A stretch of 64,000 bases of DNA from an uncultured Gemmatimonadales bacterium (GTDB lineage: Bacteria > Gemmatimonadota > Gemmatimonadetes > Gemmatimonadales > GWC2-71-9): positions 45,598-109,597 of the forward strand of contig CAVVKJ010000011.1 in assembly GCA_963748815.1 (NCBI GenBank). The letters run 5' to 3'. Positions 50,138 through 64,000 of the stretch are shown here, piece by piece (the first letter of the stretch is position 1; the number at the start of each line of letters is the position of its first letter). Both the position numbers and the translations under genes were made by a program. The notes beneath the pieces are model-generated. The model worked only from the letters and a program-made list of their open reading frames with translations. It was not told where the DNA came from and made no database searches.

Positions 50138-52267
<2,130 letters not shown>

Positions 52268-52397
52268 GGGGTTCCTCGCGCGGGCGGTCGGGAGAGACGA
52301 GCGGCGGACGGCAGGAGTCTAGCGCAGGGGGCGGGCCGGGGGTAGTTTTTTCCATAGACGGTCTATGGGAACGAGACTGAGGACTGCGCGGAGATAA

Positions 52398-52736: not shown

Positions 52737-52871
52737 GCGGGGAAGCGGGGCCGAGGGTCGTCATCCCGGCGCAAGCCGGGATCCATGTTCCCGGGCCAAC
52801 AATGGACCCCGGCTTTCGCCGGGGTGACGATTGGTGTGACTGCCCCCCTGCCCCGCTGCCTCCCGCCCCGC
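52737..52871. repeat. Inverted REP-like doublet flanked by G-rich 8-mer remnants
   Basis: GTCATCCCGGCGCAAGCCGGGATCCA (52760-52785) and TGGACCCCGGCTTTCGCCGGGGTGACG (52803-52829). Confidence 0.85.
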
Positions 52872-52880
52872 CGGCCAGCG

Positions 52881-53539
52881 CTAGCTGGCCCTCGCCCACA
52901 CCTTCAGGAACGGAATCCGACTCGGTGCCGGCGAGATGACCACCGCCGCGGCCTGTTCCACCGGCGCGTCGAGTTCGACGTCGGCCATCGCGGCGAGCGC
53001 CTGCTGGTAGACCATCTGCGCCTGGTGCGCCGGCAAATCCATGGTGCGGATGTAGTGCCGCACGCCGTCTTCCGACGAGCCGCTGCGCGTCCCGGCCAGC
53101 ATCAGCGCATTCGACTTGTGAGTGGCGGCCAGCCCTTCGAGCGCGCGGGCGGCGGCGAGGGTCATCCGGCGCCGCGCCTCCTGGGTCGCGGAGGCCATCC
53201 GGCGAGTCACGCCGAGGAAGGTGCCGGGGTTGAGGAGTGCCCAGCCACTTGGAGTCCCCTCCGCGGCGGGGCCATCGAGCGCGGCAAAGTCCAGCCGGAG
53301 GAAGGTGCCGGTCCGGACGGCGTCGCGCATGCCGAGAGGAACGGGCACTTCGCGGAAATAGGCGTCGAGCGCTTCGTCCACCGACACCAGCGGGGCGAGG
53401 GCTTCGACGAAGCTGGCGGCCTCGGCGCGATGGGTCTCGACCAGCGCCTCCCAGGCGCGGGCGTAGGCCACCTGCACCCGGCGGTCGGCCGGGGTCGCAG
53501 CGGGGGTCAGCGAAGGTATCGGCGTTCGGGACCTGCATC
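52881..53539 (-). CDS. Hypothetical helical protein; start uncertain
   Basis: Protein-like frame RRVQVAYARAWEALVETH...; two similar halves ending ALDAYFR / GVRHYIR; ATG at 53539 needs an indel. Confidence 0.5.
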
Positions 53540-53822
53540 GTTCGGCACTCCGGAAAGAGGTCGACTTCCGGAAGGGGAAAGAGCAGGAGCGGTGCCAGCC
53601 TGGCCTGGACCCGCTGTAACTTCTTATGACGACAATGGGTTGGCGCGTCTGTCCCGCAACCAATTGCAGTACCTTGGCATCCGGGGCGCCGATTCTGTGC
53701 GCTCGGCACACAGCGCTGAGGGATGGACGCGACAGCCGGGCGGGCGGTCGGATGTTTCAGAGTAGATTTGGCCGGACGGGAAGCGTCGTCGTTCGCACGC
53801 CGACAGCGAGCGAAGCAGTATC

Positions 53823-55514
53823 ATGACCTGGCTGATTGAGACTCTCCGCGCGCACCCGGAAATCGCGCTCTTCCTGACCCTCGCGCTTGGGTACGCCCTC
53901 ACCAAGCTGCGGGTTGGCCCCATCCAGTTGAATGCCGTCGTCGCCGTGCTGATCGCGGGCGTCGCCGTCGGACAGTTGCAAATCGAGGTGCCCGCCTCGC
54001 TCCAGTGGGTGTTCTTCGTCCTGTTTCTCTACTCCATCGGGTACCAGACCGGGCCGCAGTTCTTCCGGGGGCTGGGGCGGAGCGCCCTGCCCCAGGTGGG
54101 ACTCGCCCTCCTGCTCTGCGGAACGGTGCTCGCCAGCGCGCTGGCGCTGTCGAGGATCTTCGGGTTCGACGCCGGCGCCGGCGCCGGCCTGCTTGCCGGC
54201 GGGTTGAACGCCTCAGCGGCCATCGGCACGGCCGGTGACGCCATCACCCGTCTCCCGTCGAGCCCGCGACGACCCAGGCCCTCTCTACCAGCCTCACGGT
54301 GGCCTTCGCGGTCACCTACCTGGTCGGGCTGCTGACGGAGATCTTCACGCTCACCATCGTGGGGCCGTGGCTGATGCGCTCGGACCTGGCCGCCGACTGC
54401 AAAAAGCTCGAGGCGGAGATGGGCGTGGGCAGCGGCGACGCCGGCGTCAGCTCCGGGTATCAGGGTGTCGTGGTGCGCGCGTACGGCGTGCCCGCCCGGC
54501 TCGACGGGCGGACGGTGACGGAGGTCGAGCGATCGTTCGCTCCCGCCCGGGTCTTTGCCGAGCGGCTCCGGACCCCGAAGGGATCGTCGACCCGACTCCC
54601 TCGACGGTGCTGCGGACGGGCCACGTCCTCGCGCTCTCGGGCGCCTGGCGACGCAGGTCGGGCCCGGGAATCCGCTGGCCGGCACCGAGGTCGACGATCC
54701 GGAGCTGCTGGACATTCCCACCGGCACCGTTGATGTGGTGCTCGCCGCGAAGGAGCTGGTCGGGCGGACGCTCAGGGACGTGGCGGAGACAGTCGGGCGG
54801 GATGAGGTCAGTCGAAGCGTGTTCATCCGGCAAATCCTGCGGGGAGGGAAGCAGGTGCCGTTCGGGCCTGGCACCGTCGTGGAGCGCGGCGACGTCTTCA
54901 CGCTCGTCGGCCCGGCGGCGCACCTCGGGCGGGTGACTCCCCTCATTGGCCGGGCGTTGCCACCCGCGGCCAGCACCGACTTCCTCAGCATGACAGTGGC
55001 GATCGCCCTCGGCGGGCTGGGCGGCCTCCTGACCGTTCGCCTCGCCGGCCTCGAGGTGGGCCTCAGCATGCCGGTCGGCGTTCTGCTCGGCGGGCTCCTC
55101 GCGGGGTGGCTGCACTCGGTGCGTCCCGCGGTGGCGGCGATGCCCGAGCCGGTGCTCCGCGTCTTCGACTCGATCGGGCTCACCGGCTTCCTGGCGGTGG
55201 TCGGCATCAACGCCGGCCCCGGGTTCATCACGGGCCTGGCCACGTCCGGCGTGCCGCTCGTCATCGCCGGCTTCCTGGTGTGTCTCATCCCGAACGTGGT
55301 GACGATCCTGGCGGGGCGGTACCTCCTCAGGCTCCACCCCGGCGTGCTCCTCGGCATCTGTGCCGGCGCCGGCACCTCGCCGGCGGGGCTGGCCGCGGTG
55401 CAGGACAAGGCCGGGAGCAAGGTCCCGACCCTTGGATACGGTGTGAGCTACGCGGTGGGCAACCTGCTGCTGGCGCTCTGGGGATCGGTGCTGGTCATGG
55501 CCCTCGCCGGCTGA
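53823..55514 (+). CDS. aspT: AspT/YidE family antiporter (aspartate:alanine exchanger-like), frameshifts near 54270, 54580, 54650
   Basis: PEIALFLTLALGY, FLYSIGYQTGPQFF, TrkA-C-like middle, VVGINAGPGF, SKVPTLGYGVSYAVGN. Confidence 0.85.
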
Positions 55515-55532
55515 GACGCAGGGCACTTCCGC

Positions 55533-57038
55533 TCAGAAGTTGACCTCGACGCTGGTGTAGAAGACGTTGCCGTTGCCGCCCACCGGGTAGGGGAGCGAAA
55601 GGGCGCCGACGGGTGAGTGGTTCAACTTGAGCACCTCGGCGTTCCACCGGACGATCTGGTTCTTCCAGGGAAACCAGCTGGCGCCGATCCTGACGTCCGA
55701 GGGGTCACCGTACTGGCCGTAGATCTTGGAGCCGGCGACGTACACCTGCAGCGTCTTCTGAATCGCCATGGCGGAGGCCAGCACCTGGAATCCGTCGTCC
55801 CGGAGGCTGGGGAGCCCGGTGGTGCCGGGCCCCTGGAAGTCATCGATCCAGCGCCCGTAATACGCCGCATCCAGCGAAAATCCGTGATACTTGAGGCCCG
55901 CGTCCACGCTTGTCATCTGGTAGCGTGCATCCTGGACCCGGATCCCCGGGCCGAAGATATCGGGCGCGAAGATGATCCCGCCGTTCGACAGACGGATCTG
56001 GACGTTCTCGAAGTTGTCCGTATTGGGCTGGCCCTGGTAGTTCTCCAGGCTGTAGGTGTAGTGCGCCGCGAATCGCGTCGCGAGCTTCTCGTGATCCTGG
56101 AAGTCGCCGAAGGGGCTTCGCGGCCCTCCGAACTCGCCGGTGGTCGGCAGCCAGACGAGGGACGCCGAGACGGTGTTGAGCCCGTTGTCCAGCTGGCCGG
56201 CGTCCACGCCCAGTTGACTGAGGTTGTTCCCCAGCATGACGGTGTAACTGAGACGATCGACCACCTCGCCGAGGGCCCAGATGCCGGTGGTGTAGGACGG
56301 CCGGAAGTACTCGTCGGCGATGAGGCGGTTGTCGACCGGGAGCCAGGCGGGGAATTGACCCTCGGTCGAGCGCACGCCGGGCAGGCCGAAGATCCCGCCG
56401 CCGACGGTGAGGTGGCTGTTGATGTTGTACATGAGGTTGCCGGCGACGACGACCTGCGCGGACAGCCCCTGGCTGGTGTTCGTGCTCCAGACGTAGGTCA
56501 GGTATCGAAAGCGCGGACTCAGGATCCAGCCGCGAAAGTACAGGATGACCTTCTGGAACTGGACATCCTGCCGCTGCTGCACCGGGACGGTGTTGCCGAA
56601 CGCGTCGGTGTAGGTCGGATCGAGGCCCATCTGGTTGAGGTAGCGGACGTAGGTGTAGAGGCTGAAGTTGAGGTCGCCCTTGTCGGTGTTCACTACCTTG
56701 AACCCGGTACCGGGCGTGTACGTCCCCCACGAGTCTCTCTTGGCCTTGCCGAGCGCAAACTGGCCGCTGCAGCCATCCGTGACCCAGATGCTCTGCTGAT
56801 CGTAGCCCCAGGTCACGCCCAATACGCACGCCAGGCTGCCCGTCTCCCGGAGCAGGGTGACCCCCGCGCCGGTGTTGGCCGCGCAGCTCTGGCGTTCGCC
56901 CGGTTTCGACGCACAGACGACATCCGGAACGCGCGCGGTGCTGTCCTGGGCCGCCGCGGCGGTCGCCCCGACTGAAGAGGCGAGCACGATCACCGCGAGA
57001 CTTCCCGCCAGGCGCCGCCTCGGTATGCGCACGAACAT
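55533..57038 (-). CDS. Outer-membrane beta-barrel protein with N-terminal DUF3011-like Cys domain
   Basis: Signal AAA-Q; C...C..GVTWGYD..IWVTDGC; C-terminal YTSVEVNF beta-signal. Confidence 0.7.
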   Translation of the reverse strand: MFVRIPRRRLAGSLAVIVLASSVGATAAAAQDSTARVPDVVCASKPGERQSCAANTGAGVTLLRETGSLACVLGVTWGYDQQSIWVTDGCSGQFALGKAKRDSWGTYTPGTGFKVVNTDKGDLNFSLYTYVRYLNQMGLDPTYTDAFGNTVPVQQRQDVQFQKVILYFRGWILSPRFRYLTYVWSTNTSQGLSAQVVVAGNLMYNINSHLTVGGGIFGLPGVRSTEGQFPAWLPVDNRLIADEYFRPSYTTGIWALGEVVDRLSYTVMLGNNLSQLGVDAGQLDNGLNTVSASLVWLPTTGEFGGPRSPFGDFQDHEKLATRFAAHYTYSLENYQGQPNTDNFENVQIRLSNGGIIFAPDIFGPGIRVQDARYQMTSVDAGLKYHGFSLDAAYYGRWIDDFQGPGTTGLPSLRDDGFQVLASAMAIQKTLQVYVAGSKIYGQYGDPSDVRIGASWFPWKNQIVRWNAEVLKLNHSPVGALSLPYPVGGNGNVFYTSVEVNF

Positions 57039-57066
57039 CAGATCTCACCTTGTCATTGGAGTGACA

Positions 57067-57840
57067 CTACTTGCTGCTGCACCCGCTGATGCAGAAGAAG
57101 GGCGGCGTGAACAGCATCATGCCGGCCTGGAGTCCCGCGCCCAGGCAGCTCGTGAACTCCTGGCCGTAGGTGAAGGCGAAGGTGGTGTACTGGTTCGGCT
57201 CCCAGCGCACGCCGGCCTTGTATTCCGCCGGCGTCTCCACGTCGCCGACGCCGCCGAAGACTTCGCCCACGATGGCGAGCTTCGGGCCCTTGGGATACCA
57301 GGCCAGCCGGGTGGAATAGGTGAACGCCCAGCCGACTTCCGAGGCTGGTCCCGCTGTCGTTGGTGTAGCTCGCCCCGGCATCAGGTCCCACGAGAGCCTG
57401 TTGTCGAGGAAGGGAAGCGTCACCGGCGCGTTCACCCACCAGGTCTGGAACGCATCCTCAAGCCCCACGCTCGTCAGGTAGCCCGGATCGAGGCCGGTGC
57501 CGCCCTTGAACGCCACGCCGCCGGTCTTGGCGGCGTTCTCGTCGATCATGTACTTGAAGTAGAGGCTCGTCGAGTAGCCGTCGTCCGTCGAGCGGTCGTT
57601 GTCGCCATTGATGATGTACGCGGCGTAGGTGAACTCCCAGCGGGGCAGCAGGGAGAAGGTGGTCATCACCATGTCGCTCTGCTGGCCGGCGGTCAGGATG
57701 ATGGTGGCCACGCCGGCGGGCTTCGACAGGTAGTTGTCGGAATTGAACTGCTGGGCGCTGGGCGGGCGTCCAGGACGACGGCCAGCGCCACTGCCAGGGC
57801 GCCGGCCATCGCGTGTGCCGAATCCGGGGGATGCTCGCAC
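57067..57840 (-). CDS. Hypothetical exported / outer-membrane protein, frameshifts near 57770 and 57370
   Basis: Signal-like ALAVALAVVL..SA-QQFNSDNY; amphipathic beta strands; YKAGVRWEP. Confidence 0.6.
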   Translation of the reverse strand: MRASPGFGTRDGRRPGSGAGRRPGRPPSAQQFNSDNYLSKPAGVATIILTAGQQSDMVMTTFSLLPRWEFTYAAYIINGDNDRSTDDGYSTSLYFKYMIDENAAKTGGVAFKGGTGLDPGYLTSVGLEDAFQTWWVNAPVTLPFLDNRLSWDLMPGRATPTTAGPASEVGWAFTYSTRLAWYPKGPKLAIVGEVFGGVGDVETPAEYKAGVRWEPNQYTTFAFTYGQEFTSCLGAGLQAGMMLFTPPFFCISGCSSK

Positions 57841-57890
57841 GGCGTGCCAATCGTTGGTGTCAGGCCTGCGTCACGGCGTTCGGTGGCCTG

Positions 57891-59270
57891 CTAGAACAGG
57901 ATGTCCGTGCCGAGCGAGTAGGTCCACCCGGTCTGGCCGGCGGCGTAGTACCCGAAGCTGGACCCAGTCGGGCTCTTGTAGACGTTGATGGTGTGCAGGT
58001 TGAGCCGCCAGCTCCTGGTGCCCATCGGGTACAAGCTGACGCCGGGCGAGATCTCGTACGGATGCCGCTCGAACTGGTCCCAGACGTAGCCGCCCGACGT
58101 GTACAGCATGACGTGACTCGGCACCACCATGTACCCGAGCTGGGCCTGGAAGCCGCGGTCGGTGACCGAGCGTCAGCGGCAGCGGTCCATCGGCGACGAA
58201 GTCGGAGAGCTTGCGCTGGTAGTACTCCGACTGGAAGCTCCAGCCCCGGTACTTGAGCCCGGCATCGATGGCGAATTCGTTGTAGGCCAGGTACTCGACC
58301 GTCACGCCTGTCGGCCAGCGCCCCGGTCTCGAAGGCGTAGCACGCCGTCGGAAAGTCGGAATTGGGTCTCGTTGGGGTTCGGCTGGGTGAGCGGGGCGGC
58401 GCGGTACTCGTCCGGGGCATAGGCATACGACGACCCCGAACCGCGTGGCGAGCTTCTCGTGGTACTCCAGGTCGCCGAAGCCGCCGCGGGGCCCGAACTC
58501 CCCGGTGGTGGGCATCCACTGCACGCTGGCGCTGTAGGCCATGCCGCGCCCGTCGTTCGCCGCCGTCACACCGAGCTGGCTGAGGTTGGTGTTGACGCCG
58601 GCGGTGTACCAGAAGCGCGACAGCGGCTGCCCGGTGATGAAGACGCCGGAGGAGAAGCCCGCCCGCATGAACTCCTCCGTCATCTGCCGGTCGCTGCCGG
58701 CCCAGAAGGGCCAGGAGCCCTGCATCGAGCGCACGGCGAGGTTCGGGGCCATGCCGACCGCCGAGCGTCAGGGCCGGGCTCACCCGGTACTGGAGGTTGC
58801 CGAACACCAGCGTCTGCTGCGTGGCCCCGAGCGACCAGACCGTGAGGTTGTAGCGCAGGTCGGGAGTGCCGAAGAATCCGGTGAACCAGATCATCGACCG
58901 CTGCCAGTACATGTCGTTCGCGGGCCGCGACGTCGCGCGTACGGCCGAGGTGGTCGGTGAAGGTCTGGTCGCCGGGCGTCTGGTCGATCCAGCGGAACAG
59001 GCCGTACACGCTGATGTTCAGGCTGGCCTCGCCTGGAGGTGAAGAGCTGGAAGCCCTTGCCGGGCGTGAACTCGCCCGCGGTGGTGTTCGCCATCGGCTT
59101 CCGAATGGCGGCCGTGTCGGCGGCGCTGATCCTGGCGGCGTGCTGTCGCGCGGGGTCGGCGACGACTGATGTCCTGCGCGGTAGCCGCGCGAGGGCAGCA
59201 GCCACGAGCGCGGCGAGGAGCGCGCGCCAGGGACCAGAGCAAGCGTACCGACCGACCCGGGATGTGTCAT
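57891..59270 (-). CDS. Outer-membrane beta-barrel protein, paralog of 55533..57038, multiple frameshifts
   Basis: FTPGKGF vs YTPGTGF; WMPTTGEFG..GDLEYHEKLATRF vs WLPTTGEFG..GDFQDHEKLATRF; ends LGTDILF. Confidence 0.7.
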
Positions 59271-59367
59271 GCTGCGGTCTCCTGGCTGGAGGTGCTGAGT
59301 GAGACCGACCCGGCCCGCGCGGGGACGAGGCATGCGCGCCCCGCCCCCGACACGGAGGGGGCCCTGC

Positions 59368-60428
59368 TTACTTGGCACCGAACTGGGCGTAGGGATTCCC
59401 GCCCAGCGCGTTGGAGATGTCCGCGATGGCCAGCTGGGCGCGGACGCTGTTGCCGGCGGCGTCGACCGGCGGCGAGATCACGGCGATGCCGAACTTGCCG
59501 GGCGAGACGGCGATGATGCCGCCGCCCACGCCGCTCTTGGCGGGCAGGCCGGTGTTGAAGAGCCACTTGCCGGCGTCGTCATAGAGGCCGGCGGTGGCCA
59601 TGACCGCGAGCACTTCGGGAACGTCGGCCGACTTCATCACCTGCTTGTTGGTGACCGGGTTCTTGCCGCCGAAGGCCAGCATGGCGGCCATCATCGCCAG
59701 GTCCTTGGCGTTGACGCCGACCGAGCACTGCTCGGTGTAGATGTCCACGGCCTGGAGGGGGTTGTCCTTGATGTAGCCGTAGGCGTACATCAGCATCCCG
59801 ATGGCCTGGTTCCGCTGGTTGGTGGCGGCCTCGGAGTCGTACACGTCCTTGAGGACCGTGAGCTGCCGGCCGGCGGCGGCGTTGTAGAAGTTGGAGATGC
59901 TGCCCCAGATCTCCCCGCGGCTGCTCCCCTTCACCATGCTGGTGGCGGTGATGGCGCCGGGGTTGACCAGCGGGTTCATTTCCGCGGCGCTCTCGAGCTT
60001 CGACCCGCCGAGGCCCTTGTACGACCATTCAATCGAGACGATCGAGTTGAACCGCATGCCGGTCGCGTCCGCCCCGATGGTCGTCAGGATGGCGTCGGGA
60101 CTCTGCTGGTCCATGACCAGCGCCATGGTGAAGACCTTCGAGATCGACTGGATCGACACCTCGGTCTTCAGGTCGCCGGCGGTGTACACCTTGCCGTCGG
60201 CCGTCACCACCGCGATGCCGAACACCTTCGGGTCCACCTTGGCGAGCGCCGGGATGTAGTCGGCGACGGCGCCGTCATTGTTGTTCTTGTACTTGGCGTA
60301 CGCGGCGTCCACCGCCGCCTGGATCTGCGCTGGCGTCTGCGCCGACGGCCGGCCACGGCTGCAGCAGCGTGCGCCGCGAGCGCGAGTCCGAGGGCGCCGC
60401 GGCCGAGTCGGGTCATGAAGCGGGACAT
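59368..60428 (-). CDS. glsA: Glutaminase A with N-terminal signal-like sequence (indels in the 5' region)
   Basis: ADYIPALA, SIQSISKVF, NPLVNPGAI, GLYDDAG, GLPAKSGVGGG; start overlaps upstream stop (TGATG). Confidence 0.93.
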
Positions 60429-61650
60429 CAGTTGCCTCCGAAGGTCTGCTTGAAGGAGTACTTGAACGAGACGGCGACCCGGTTGTCGTTGAAGGTCCAG
60501 TCGTCGGAGAAATTCTCCCGCTGGCCGTAGGTGTACTCGATGCCGGCCAGGACGTTCGGGACCGGGTAGTAGATCAGGTTGACCGCCACGTAGGAGCCGG
60601 CGTGGAAGGCGTCGGCCGACTGCCCGTCGCTGTTGTCGATGTTCGAGGTAGGAGTACCCGAGCGAGCTGGTGAACTTCTCGCTCCAGGTGTGGTCGTAGA
60701 ACGCCACCATGCTCCACATCGGGAGCGCCACGCCGATGATCGGGGAGACCGGATCCGAGAAGTTGTTCTGGATCCCGATGTCCACCGGGGCGTCGTTCAT
60801 GTAGTTCTGGATCCCCTCGCCGTACACGCCCTGCAGCCGGAGCACGTCGGCCTTGCCGATCTTGATGTTGGAGCTCAGGCTGAGGCCCCAGCCGGTGGCG
60901 TCGCCCGACAGGTCGAAGGCGTCGGTGTTCTGGTCTTCCCACTCGATCCGCCGCAGGATGCCGCCGAGCTGGATGTAGCCCCAGTCGTGCGCCGGAGCGG
61001 TACTGGGCGGTCAGGTCGGGCAGCGGGAACTTGGCCGCGACGCCGTCGAGCTCGACGCGGTCGGCGTACTCGCCCTGGTCGGCGCTGGCGCCGGGGTTCT
61101 CCAGCGCGATGTTCAGGAACGACTCCCCCTGGATCGGCGTGTAGCGCACCTGGAGGTTCCGGAAGAAGACCATGCCGTTCGGGCCCCAGTACTCGAGCGT
61201 GTTGGGGAAGACGTCGATGTCCATGAAGGCGCTGTTGTTCTGGCCCGCGCCGAACTTGCCCAGCTGGCCGTAGGCCTTGCGGAGCCGGATGGTGGTCTGG
61301 CCGGCGTCGGACCCGACGCCGAACATGTCGAACTCGAAGATGGTGTAGAGCTCCCCGGCCTTGGTCGGCACCCACGACTGGACGCCGAACCGGCTCTGCC
61401 GGACGCTCATGAACGCGTTGCCGTCCGTCCCGAACTCATCCTCGAAGGCCGGGAGCTTGGTGGGCCGCATCACGTCGTACCAGTCGGGATTGATCCGGTC
61501 GATCTGGAAGCCGAAGTCGAGCTGGGCGAACCCGTAGACGTCGAACTTCGGCTTGGTGGGCGCGTTCTGCGCCGCCGCCGGGACGGCGAACAGGACCAGC
61601 GCCGCGAGGAGCCAGCCCATGGACTGAGGAACACGACGCAGGTATGTCAT
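60428..61650 (-). CDS. DcaP family outer-membrane channel, frameshifts near 60990 and 60650
   Basis: Signal AAA-Q; VYGFAQLD, SVRQSRFG, RLRKAYG, GAGQNNSAFMD, EYWGPNG, ends VSFKYSF. Confidence 0.8.
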
Positions 61651-61819
61651 CTGACCCCTCCGAAATGGTGTGACTAGCTGACGGCGGCGGACGCACCCCG
61701 CGCTCACGGGGTGCCCTCACGCTCCCTTGGAGAGTAGTGCGACCCGGCAGGGCGGTAACCTCGGGATTTTACGGGGCTTGGGGCGGGGAAATTACGAGTG
61801 GCGCGGGGGGGGAAGGGCC

Positions 61820-62470
61820 TCAGAACTCGACCAAACCCTGCTTGATGGCAAAGTGAATCAATTCGGCGTTGGTGTGCACGCCCAGCGTCTCCATCATCTG
61901 GTACTTGTGAAATTCCACCGTCCGGGCCGAAATCCCCATGCTCGATGCGATTTCCTTGGCGGACCGACCCTCGGCCAGCAGCTGGAGGACTTCCCGCTGC
62001 CGCGGGGTGAGCGACGCCACCGGGTCGACGGGCTGGTCGGGCCCCTTCTTGAGCGCGGAGAGGACCTCCCCCGCCATCTGGGGAGTGATGTAGGTCTCCC
62101 CCTTGAGCGCGGCCCGGATGGCCGTGACCAGCTCGTCCGAGGCGGAGTGCTTGAGGACAAACCCGGCCGCCCCCGCCTCCAGCGCGCGCCGCGCGAAGGT
62201 CACGTCCCGATGCATCGTGAGAAACACGACCGGGACGTCGTCTCCCCCCTGCCGCAGCTGGACCAGCGCCTCGATGCCGTTGAGGTGCGGCATCGTGATG
62301 TCCGCGACGATCACGTCCGGTCGCAATTTCGCCGCCGCCGCGACCAGTTCGCGGCCGTCTTCCACCATGCCCACGAGGTCGAACTCCGCGGTCAACAGGC
62401 TCTTCAGCGCCTCGGCCACCAGCAGGTGGTCGTCGGCGAGGAGCAGGCGCGGACGACGTGCGTCGGTCAC
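61820..62470 (-). CDS. NarL/LuxR family response regulator
   Basis: LLADDH, VADITMP, LTPRQREVLQLLAEG, TVEFHK. Confidence 0.95.
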   Translation of the reverse strand: MTDARRPRLLLADDHLLVAEALKSLLTAEFDLVGMVEDGRELVAAAAKLRPDVIVADITMPHLNGIEALVQLRQGGDDVPVVFLTMHRDVTFARRALEAGAAGFVLKHSASDELVTAIRAALKGETYITPQMAGEVLSALKKGPDQPVDPVASLTPRQREVLQLLAEGRSAKEIASSMGISARTVEFHKYQMMETLGVHTNAELIHFAIKQGLVEF

Positions 62471-64000
62471 GACGCCCCCTCCAGCGCCGGCACCCAGGCG
62501 ACGACGGTGGTGCCCTGGCCCGGCGCGCTCTCGATGTCCAGCGTCCCGTTGACCAGTCGGATGCGTTCCCGCATGCTCGCGAGGCCAAGGCTTCTTCCCG
62601 CGCCGCGCCGGTTGGTCACGAACCCCGCGCCGTCGTCCCGCACGGCGAGGAGACAGCCCCCGTCCATGCGGCGAAGCGTCACGCTCGCGGAGCGGGCCTG
62701 GGCGTGACGGGCCACGTTGCTCAGCGCCTCCTGCGCAATGCGAAAGAGACAGAGCGCCGCGTCCTTGCCGAGATCCGCCGAAGGGGCCTCGATGTCCAGC
62801 GCCAGCACCAGCGGTCCCCGGCGCCCGACCCGTTCACATTCGGCGCGCAGCGCCTCGGCCAGCCCGAGTTCCTCCAGGACCGAGGGATGGAGCTGATACG
62901 CGAGGGAGTGGACGTCCTCGCTCAGCCGGATGAGCCCGTCCCGGATGTCGCGCATCGCCTGCGCGTGGGCCGAATCGGGGGCCTCCTTCTCGGCGCGCCC
63001 GGCATCGATCGCCAGCACGGCAAGCCGCTGGGTCACGTCGTCGTGCAGTTCGCGCGCCAGGAGGGCGCGCTCCGCCTCGTGCGCCGCGATGAGGCGCCGG
63101 CTCAGGTGGCCCAGTTCGGCTTCGGCGAGCTTGCGGTCGGTAATGTCGCGCAGGACGCCGAAGGTACGAACGGAGACACGGGTCGCATCGCGTTCGGCCA
63201 CCCGGGCCAAATGGTGAATCCATCGTTCTCCCTTGACCGGATGACGCAAGCGGTACTCGACGGAGACCTCTTCCAGCCTCCCGTCGTGCATCTGGTCCCG
63301 CATCGACAGCACCCGCGGCCGATCCTCGGGATGCAGCTGCTCCATCCAATAGGCCACCGCCTCCAGTCCCCCCTCCCGCTCCGGGGGAATGCCGCACAGC
63401 CGGCGGAACTGTTCGTCGACAAAGGTGGTTCGGGCCGCAAAGTCGACCGTGTAATAGGCCAGGCCCGCCAGCTCGGCACCCGAGGCCAGGCGCTGCTCGG
63501 CCTCCAGGAGCCCGGAGAACATCTCCTGTCGCACCTGTGCCCCGACGATCAATTCGCCGAGCACGCGGAGCCGTGGAATGAGAGCATCCGGCCACTGATT
63601 CTCGTGATGGACGGTGTTGAGAACGATCACGTGCCGGATGATCCCGCCGGACCCGATGGGGAGTGACAGGGCGGACCGGATCGGCATCTGCAGCCACATG
63701 TCCCGTTCGACGGCCGCCTCGGGGGGCAGGTCCTCGATCTTCTCGATCCGGACCGGCACGCGCTCCACGAGGAGCATCCGGCGCGACCAGGGAAAGACCT
63801 CCGCGATGTTGAGTTCCGACGGCACCGGCGGGACGCCCTCGGAATAGGACCCGACCCGGGCGTGGGCCGCCCGATGGTCGGCGCTGACGGAGAGGAGCAC
63901 GCACCGGTCGGCACGAAAGAACTGGCGCACGGCGTCGAGGACGCGCTCGATGACGGCGTCCAGCTGTTCTGGCGGGGCGGAGAGGAGGGAGGCGGATGCG
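62467..64000 (-). CDS. Sensor histidine kinase (GAF-PAS-HisKA_3-HATPase), 5'-truncated by window edge
   Basis: LHPEDR PAS, LARELHDD, QEALSNVARH, DDGAGF, GLASMRER, PGQGT. Confidence 0.93.
   Translation of the reverse strand, partial: ASASLLSAPPEQLDAVIERVLDAVRQFFRADRCVLLSVSADHRAAHARVGSYSEGVPPVPSELNIAEVFPWSRRMLLVERVPVRIEKIEDLPPEAAVERDMWLQMPIRSALSLPIGSGGIIRHVIVLNTVHHENQWPDALIPRLRVLGELIVGAQVRQEMFSGLLEAEQRLASGAELAGLAYYTVDFAARTTFVDEQFRRLCGIPPEREGGLEAVAYWMEQLHPEDRPRVLSMRDQMHDGRLEEVSVEYRLRHPVKGERWIHHLARVAERDATRVSVRTFGVLRDITDRKLAEAELGHLSRRLIAAHEAERALLARELHDDVTQRLAVLAIDAGRAEKEAPDSAHAQAMRDIRDGLIRLSEDVHSLAYQLHPSVLEELGLAEALRAECERVGRRGPLVLALDIEAPSADLGKDAALCLFRIAQEALSNVARHAQARSASVTLRRMDGGCLLAVRDDGAGFVTNRRGAGRSLGLASMRERIRLVNGTLDIESAPGQGTTVVAWVPALEGAS

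Follow-up and report, generated by a model that had tools for sequence, protein, structure and literature searches.

Glutaminases of the GlsA family are treated as cytoplasmic enzymes. A coupled periplasmic deamidase-transport system is reportedly present in Helicobacter pylori, as in Campylobacter jejuni. The systems of these two species involve secreted AnsB, GGT and Dcu/Peb/GltS (PMC4178425 for C. jejuni). The aauSR-ansB-aatJQMP system of Pseudomonas aeruginosa consists of a two-component system, a periplasmic glutaminase and a glutamate importer (PMC7962211). We compared these systems with a block of genes at the right end of a 64,000-nucleotide stretch (hereafter, the window) from an uncultured Gemmatimonadales bacterium (contig CAVVKJ010000011.1, positions 45,598-109,597, the right edge being the contig end). 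The source genome is 86% complete, and its closest named relatives are Gemmatimonadales metagenome-assembled genomes. An earlier note on the window had proposed a regulated envelope module that takes up glutamine through dedicated channels, hydrolyzes it outside the cytoplasm and exchanges the acid products across the inner membrane. The genes on which that proposal was built, i.e., a minus-strand run of kinase, regulator, DcaP porin, glsA and three more exported genes converging on an AspT-family gene, were all found in place:

62467..64000, minus strand: sensor histidine kinase with GAF, PAS_3, HisKA_3 and HATPase domains (Pfam); 5' end lost at the contig end
61820..62470, minus strand: NarL/LuxR-type response regulator (Pfam), its start joined to the kinase stop by a GTGA overlap
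61755..61797, minus strand: 43-bp direct-repeat box, a conserved motif upstream of dcaP and candidate regulator site
60428..61650, minus strand: DcaP-family porin with signal peptide (PF19577; PDB 6EUS, E 8e-9); two frameshifts, near 60980 and 60650
59368..60428, minus strand: glutaminase A (glsA) of the YbaS-like group (PF04960) with a 29-amino-acid Sec-type signal; frameshift inside the signal region
57891..59270, minus strand: porin of an unnamed family with predicted OprP fold, paralogue of the 55533-57038 gene; at least eight frameshifts
57067..~57840, minus strand: exported 254-amino-acid beta-type protein without a Pfam match; start region frameshifted
55533..57038, minus strand: DUF3011 domain (PF11218) followed by a predicted OprP/OprO-like barrel (AlphaFold, Foldseek); exported, intact
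53823..55514, plus strand: AspT/AAEx-family transporter, convergent with the operon; three frameshifts

The Pseudomonas aauSR/ansB/aatJQMP/ggt system sets a two-component system beside an importer of glutamate and an enzyme that deamidates glutamine in the periplasm, an arrangement also predicted for the block, but it employs an asparaginase-fold AnsB, an ABC importer and a sigma-54 DctBD-type regulator proposed to sense outside glutamate, and the word porin is never used in the paper (PMC7962211). In the window block, the enzyme belongs to the GlsA family and the carrier to the AAEx family, there are three or four barrels for the outer membrane, and the NarL-type regulator is paired with a soluble kinase of GAF-PAS type. 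In the C. jejuni and H. pylori systems, as predicted for the block, gain of a Sec signal brings a deamidase to the periplasm and the acidic amino acid is imported instead of the amide; however, their enzymes belong to the GGT and AnsB families, and the accessible text mentions neither clustered porins nor a clustered regulator (PMC4178425). The same enzyme group with the same catalytic residues, at 44% and 43% identity, operates in the E. coli YbaS-GadC system (AR2_Q) and in the gadB-glsA-gadC operons of Bacteroides and Brucella (PMC3641589, PMC5695133, PMC6250119). These glutaminases have no signal peptide and are partnered by GadC and GadB, and those checked carry Glu before the catalytic Ser; the window enzyme type, in contrast, has a predicted signal peptide, the exported clade carries Gln at this position, and GadB was found in 0/5 genus genomes and 0/5 distant module genomes. 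The Acinetobacter baumannii DcaP (6EUS) is homologous to the window porin along its whole length and shares its four constriction arginines, but has a long N-terminal coiled coil and is described from a dicarboxylate-degradation locus, whereas the DcaP proteins of the genus lack the coil and lie in an amino-acid amide locus. The AspT-AspD pair of Tetragenococcus halophilus shares with the window carrier the AAEx fold with a TrkA-C domain and several pocket residues (PMC12462496), whereas the window carrier has an altered pocket, falls below the TIGR03802 cut-off and occurs without AspD (0/41 genomes).

The literature search, which left most subscription papers outside its reach, found no paper in which GlsA bears a signal, DcaP is paired with a glutaminase or an aspartase is periplasmic. 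The logic of periplasmic deamidation followed by uptake is known; for the parts, their coupling to porins and the operator, the literature searched has no description. The statement that no such system had been described holds, within that literature, for these parts and fails for the logic, which was reported for the P. aeruginosa aauSR-ansB-aatJQMP system (PMC7962211). The block is real and conserved, and most likely it is a form of coupled periplasmic deamidase-transport built from different parts.

Predicted exported glutaminase and its genomic linkage

The window glsA open reading frame matches PF04960 with 330 bits and TIGR03814 with 331 (cut-off 255); on NF009020 it scores 394.6 without its N-terminus, just under the cut-off of 395, and the intact copy of a related locus (L022) scores 417.8. 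Judged by these profiles, the window enzyme is a member of the glutaminase A family. Its best match in the PDB is YbaS (E 7e-76), and the YbaS residues S66, K69, N117, E161, N168, Y192, Y244, S260 and V262 are all identical in the window protein. They comprise the Ser-x-x-Lys motif and the Tyr of the catalytic site as well as residues that bind the substrate. The roles of Ser66, Lys69, Tyr244 and Ser260 are named in PMC5695133.

As the signal region of the window gene is frameshifted, its export was judged from intact relatives. Signal peptides were called by our own hydropathy rule (a basic-hydrophobic-AxA N-terminus). It recognizes a Sec-like start in 119 of the 120 closest homologues, the sole miss being an N-terminally cut fragment. 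At the level of sequence, this strong signal supports the exported glutaminase of the earlier note. The start of E. coli YbaS coincides exactly with the predicted mature N-terminus of the exported enzyme. In a control, the rule flagged 0/88 long and 12/23 short glutaminase representatives, so signal-bearing glutaminases occur outside the DcaP-linked clade too. In a fast tree of 78 rows with a midpoint root, the DcaP-linked exported glutaminases form a single clade (SH-aLRT 92.9), which is sister to the gad-operon GlsA of Bacteroides and Parabacteroides plus one signal-bearing protein (96.9) and lies with them within the YbaS-like group (89.4); left out of the trees are 24 of 150 representatives, whose matches were short, 15 that contain internal domains, and some three quarters of the long forms that are not exported. 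Further signal-bearing glutaminases (P0255, P0262, P0266, P0295, P0296, P0338, P0350 and P0363) are scattered in the tree outside the DcaP-linked clade, a pattern that suggests repeated gain or loss of export. Immediately before the catalytic Ser, every exported member checked has Gln, where YbaS and two gad-operon GlsA proteins have Glu. We hypothesize that this difference is linked to acid activation; the accessible literature on acid-active glutaminases offered no sequence signature for them. A plasmid search returned only cytoplasmic-type glutaminases at less than 60% identity, and the prediction of a DcaP-glutaminase complex scored 0.00, which is evidence neither way.

The glsA start codon overlaps the dcaP stop as TGATG, confirming the coupling noticed earlier. 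Where more than 500 bp of upstream sequence is available, the gene immediately before glsA is dcaP in 26/29 genome loci and 46/55 metagenome loci. These loci span Gemmatimonadota, Latescibacteria/Krumholzibacteria, Acidobacteriota, and α-, β- and γ-proteobacteria, so the glsA-porin linkage whose synteny the earlier note had wished to see checked is conserved across phyla; cultured carriers of the glutaminase module are Steroidobacter flavus, Microbulbifer guangxiensis and Gilvimarinus algae. An unbiased family scan found a glutaminase in 14 of 301 genomes of the phylum. Ten of the 13 positive genomes other than the source genome have the exported type beside module porins, and the four non-exported glutaminase genes in the same scan have no DcaP or porin within 1.5 kb.

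Within the genus, glsA is present in 10/17 genomes. The aspT gene occurs in 9/10 glsA-positive and 0/7 glsA-negative genomes, and an exported amidohydrolase (PF04909) in 9/9 glsA-positive relatives and 0/7 glsA-negative ones; since these relatives share kinship, the counts describe a unit that is gained or lost rather than many independent events. This highly conserved Amidohydro_2 protein, found in 22/31 genome loci (e.g., L016:3647-4765), is a core member missing from the earlier note: in relatives its gene lies beyond the point at which the window contig ends, and in the window genome, whose assembly lacks it, it probably does so too. It has no solved relative by sequence, and the Atlas search gave only Amidohydro_2 clusters.

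Beyond dcaP-glsA, the gene order is shuffled among loci, and distant loci add AnsB (8/31), aspartase (7/31) and an OprP-family porin (5/31); Dcu, malic enzyme, serine dehydratase and AdiA/AdiC-like genes were each seen once among them. Inspected by eye, 11 of the 15 aspartase copies of the module with a visible start begin with a signal-type N-terminus, and the other four do not; the phrase 'periplasmic aspartase' was not found in the literature searched. Sec-type aspA genes, one of them lipoprotein-like, were seen in L027, L028, L029, L030, L034, L037, L061, L070, L094, L115 and L123, and an L-serine ammonia-lyase with a twin-arginine-like N-terminus lies just downstream of glsA in L032 (12047-13654), L080, L081 and L099. 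An exported aspartase or asparaginase was considered for the window genome and rejected, as its copies carry no signals and lie on another contig.

In all three module-negative genomes examined (of seven), the slot of the block is occupied by one divergent DcaP. These lone DcaP-like genes (L170, L171 and L172 of genomes G008, G004 and G009) are 27-28% identical and in the opposite orientation. A functional link of the block to the nearby glutamine synthetase gene glnA was rejected: glnA keeps the same place in 5/5 module-negative genus genomes tested, so the adjacency reflects an insertion slot only.

Porins, AspT-like carrier and candidate operator

DcaP matches PF19577 with 54 bits as the window fragment and 79 bits as the intact L022 copy (cut-off 27). 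It aligns along its length with 6EUS, and all four constriction arginines (R114, R148, R150 and R189) are kept in the window protein, as well as in 26-28 of 29 genome-locus alignments and in all 38-43 metagenome-locus alignments. The A. baumannii channel is reported to be strongly anion-selective (bioRxiv 10.1101/306035). These arginines would fit glutamate or dicarboxylates at least as well as glutamine, and the idea that DcaP serves as a glutamine channel loses ground accordingly in its original form.

The 57891-59270 and 55533-57038 porins are paralogues with 32% identity in intact relatives, and neither matches a barrel family in Pfam. For the latter, an alignment-based AlphaFold prediction reached pLDDT 90 (30 from a single sequence), and its top Foldseek match is OprP (2o4v, E 9e-14, TM 0.58), with OmpF-type porins close behind. 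None of the window proteins matches PF07396, the family of OprP/OprO phosphate porins, and one distant paralogue matches it weakly; the predicted model thus resembles OprP in fold and not in sequence family. A profile search found no solved relative of this unnamed family, which is large: of 7998 proteins scored, 4407 match it with E 1e-10 or better. The Atlas clusters closest to the 254-amino-acid protein are unnamed ones (0.98) and a PF13557 one (0.96), and we note as a lead only that it is likely a small outer-membrane barrel.

Intact AspT copies of the genus score 494-527 on TIGR03802, under its cut-off of 547. Of the T. halophilus AspT binding residues (taken from PMC12462496), Ser132, Tyr167, Leu431 and Thr496 are kept, together with the Phe gate; the changes are Thr130 to Asn, Gln131 to Ala, Ser498 to Pro, Arg76 to Gln and Asp67 to Val. 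Position 130 is Asn in 46/46 homologues at 68% identity or more, and essentially all 46 share the changes at Gln131, Arg76 and Ser498. Aspartate 4-decarboxylase (AspD, TIGR03801) was found in 0/41 genomes with a positive Bacteroides thetaiotaomicron control; the acidobacterial module copies of AspT keep Thr130, yet AspD was not found in 4/4 of their genomes. The aspT gene is present in 13/31 genome loci and 3/80 metagenome loci, many of which are short; in the genus it is co-directional with glsA in four loci and convergent in five and in the window. By its sequence the protein is an AAEx carrier; the absence of AspD and the altered pocket do not agree with a standard Asp:Ala exchanger, and in the window genome the gene lies on the opposite strand with no box before it. 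Transport of succinate or of glutamate is reported for AAEx members (PMC12462496), and since the family includes a glutamate carrier, glutamate is a plausible substrate by analogy.

The candidate operator lies between the regulator gene and dcaP and consists of two CGTAAWWYCC-like halves 23 bp apart; a -10-like TACTCT begins at 61736, after the 43-bp box. Three distant loci, one of them acidobacterial, have this type of kinase and regulator and also the box, which none of the loci without the pair has. In locus L026, it remains with dcaP though other genes lie between it and the regulator. A matrix built from the three distant loci alone scores the window site at 43.2 vs. 17.6 for the next-best site genome-wide. 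Second copies of the box, which were not used in training, precede the amidohydrolase gene in 4/4 loci that have both, and score 43-58 vs. 14.8 for the best other site in the window genome. The box pattern occurs in 4/301 genomes of the phylum, all glutaminase-positive, and the reversed control gave no matches. Thus, the box is likely the binding site of the NarL-type regulator. As it is the single site in the window genome, with none upstream of aspT, the convergent aspT is probably outside its control.

The kinase, about 26 amino acids short relative to L022 because it is cut at the contig end, has no transmembrane segment (maximal 19-residue hydropathy 1.41, and 1.52 in the full-length L022 copy). 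It is found in 6/10 glsA-positive and 0/7 glsA-negative genus genomes. The view of the block as a regulated module is therefore upheld insofar as the box tracks the adjacent pair, and weakened insofar as the pair is optional and its kinase lacks a membrane segment. A search with FNR and sigma-54 consensus sequences in 16 regions upstream of the module found no common site, only one sigma-54-like and three weak FNR-like ones. A stand-alone receiver-domain gene accompanies the kinase-regulator pair in L016 (4865-5200), L021, L022, L025, L026, L040, L044 and L046; in the window genome, its counterpart would fall beyond the contig end.

Proposed function and rival explanations

We propose, with a probability of about one half, that the block serves periplasmic deamidation of glutamine followed by uptake of glutamate as a source of carbon and nitrogen. 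Small amino acids and acids would cross the outer membrane via the anion-preferring DcaP and the two OprP-fold porins, the exported glutaminase would split periplasmic glutamine into glutamate and ammonium, and glutamate would enter through the AspT-like carrier and/or a GltP-type symporter, with ammonium being mostly lost. The soluble kinase would sense an internal signal, in response to which the regulator would act at the box to induce the dcaP-glsA-porin operon as well as the amidohydrolase gene. With the enzyme kept out of the cytoplasm, glutaminase and glutamine synthetase would not work against each other in a futile cycle. Feeding fits best because a GltP/DctA-type (SDF) symporter is present in 17/17 genus genomes, no GlnH-like protein was seen in the window genome (the sole match to the polar-amino-acid binding domain is, as read from its sequence, MltF-like), catabolic partners accompany the module elsewhere, and P. 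aeruginosa and C. jejuni provide a precedent. Polar amino-acid binding proteins of normal match length were found in 2/7 glsA-negative and 0/10 glsA-positive genomes; these numbers are too small and were not used.

Several observations weigh against feeding. The exported clade is sister to gad-operon GlsA (SH-aLRT 96.9) inside the YbaS-like group, and YbaS is reported to have no activity at pH 7-8 and to be active only at pH 6 or below (PMC3641589); an exported enzyme that had retained this property could not serve feeding at neutral pH. One of the 31 genome loci (L042) has AdiA-like and AdiC-like genes nearby, the AspT-like carrier occurs in only 13/31 genome and 3/80 metagenome loci, the signal peptides rest on our own rule, and public runs yielded no expression evidence for the window organism. 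A glutamine transporter could also be missing from the 86%-complete assembly.

The kinship with YbaS and gad-operon GlsA underlies a rather unlikely explanation, in which the block buffers acid in the periplasm: a glutaminase activated by acid would respond directly to the pH outside and consume protons there while anion-selective porins vent glutamate, so that no GadC-type antiporter is needed. Its nearest characterized relatives are indeed acid-resistance glutaminases (YbaS, E 7e-76; the sister group in gad operons), the anion-selecting DcaP arginines are kept, all partner enzymes of distant loci release ammonia, and the AdiA/AdiC-like genes near L042 as well as the lack of AmtB in the genus would fit too. 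However, deamidation yields Glu- and NH4+ with no net proton uptake near pH 7 and buffers only near pH 4-5. Moreover, neither GadB, AspD nor an Orn/Lys/Arg decarboxylase was found in the window genome, all exported members checked have Gln where YbaS and gad-operon GlsA have Glu, next to the catalytic Ser, and the kinase has no periplasmic sensor. A GadC-like gene is absent among the annotated window genes, the scope within which it was looked for, no genome-wide search having been made. Should YbaS-like acid activation be kept, the block would represent a new acid-resistance design wholly outside the inner membrane.

It is improbable that the block is a loose island of envelope genes for another carboxylate or amide, defined by the amidohydrolase and the porins, with the glutaminase as a passenger and the AspT-like carrier exporting an acid such as succinate, which AAEx members are reported to carry along with glutamate (PMC12462496). 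The shuffled order beyond dcaP-glsA, the two orientations of aspT, three genes without a known substrate and the lone divergent DcaP kept by module-negative relatives in the same slot speak for such an island, whereas the near-fixed dcaP-glsA adjacency with overlapping or close stop and start, the joint gain or loss of glsA, amidohydrolase and aspT within the genus, and the same box before dcaP and the amidohydrolase gene speak against it. Still less probable is nitrogen scavenging, an option raised in the earlier note, in which the cell would import the amide nitrogen as ammonium and discard the carbon skeleton through DcaP. P. aeruginosa fed glutamine is reported to accumulate more than 10 mM glutamate outside (PMC7962211), a type III glutamine synthetase gene is found two genes away from the block, and AmtB is present in 3/5 distant module genomes; on the other hand, AmtB was found in 0/17 genus genomes (eight of them near-complete) vs. 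14/14 controls, and glnA at the same place in 5/5 module-negative genomes makes the adjacency an insertion slot.

We tentatively suggest, though with considerable doubt, that the block belongs to a widespread, undescribed periplasmic deamination compartment, formed by a Sec-exported GlsA clade co-translated with an anion porin. Other phyla would add an exported aspartase, asparaginase, serine dehydratase or amidohydrolase, and here the compartment would also have an operator and a cytoplasmic sensor of its own, and would be complete with an AAEx carrier that works without AspD and has been retooled for glutamate. A cross-phylum exported GlsA clade tied to a porin would change the view of how amide nitrogen and amino-acid carbon are processed in abundant uncultured environmental bacteria; in this genus without AmtB, the cell would probably give off the amide nitrogen as ammonium. 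Starting points for further work are the candidate operator and its regulator, an AAEx subfamily that may carry glutamate, the large OprP-fold porin family, as yet without a name, and the cultured carriers.

Probable assembly errors and neighbouring sequences

One-base indels were found at the same sites relative to all or nearly all covering relatives in dcaP (two), the 57891-59270 porin gene (at least eight) and aspT (three), and relatives have intact copies of the genes that are frameshifted in the window. Housekeeping glnA, unrelated to the block, shows the same kind of one-base indels; because glnA is hit likewise and intact copies exist in relatives, the window frameshifts are most likely long-read assembly errors. 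The public reads are distant or fragmentary: no sequencing run shared half of the sequence words, and four runs gave only short contigs of relatives. Scans for sigma-70 promoters and terminators gave results at chance level.

The glnA gene, labeled from its sequence as a type III glutamine synthetase, occupies positions 50138-52310; it carries several one-base indels in the window, is intact in relatives and, being broken, is usable as an internal control for assembly error. The convergent aspT and DUF3011-porin genes are separated by a gap of 18 bp. A short GC-rich palindromic pair at 52740-52840 looks REP (repetitive extragenic palindrome)-like by eye, and the inverted-repeat scan did not pair its members. 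Between aspT and a PadR-like gene, positions 52881-53555 encode a conserved protein of about 220 amino acids without a Pfam match, which is found in module-positive and module-negative genomes of the genus alike.

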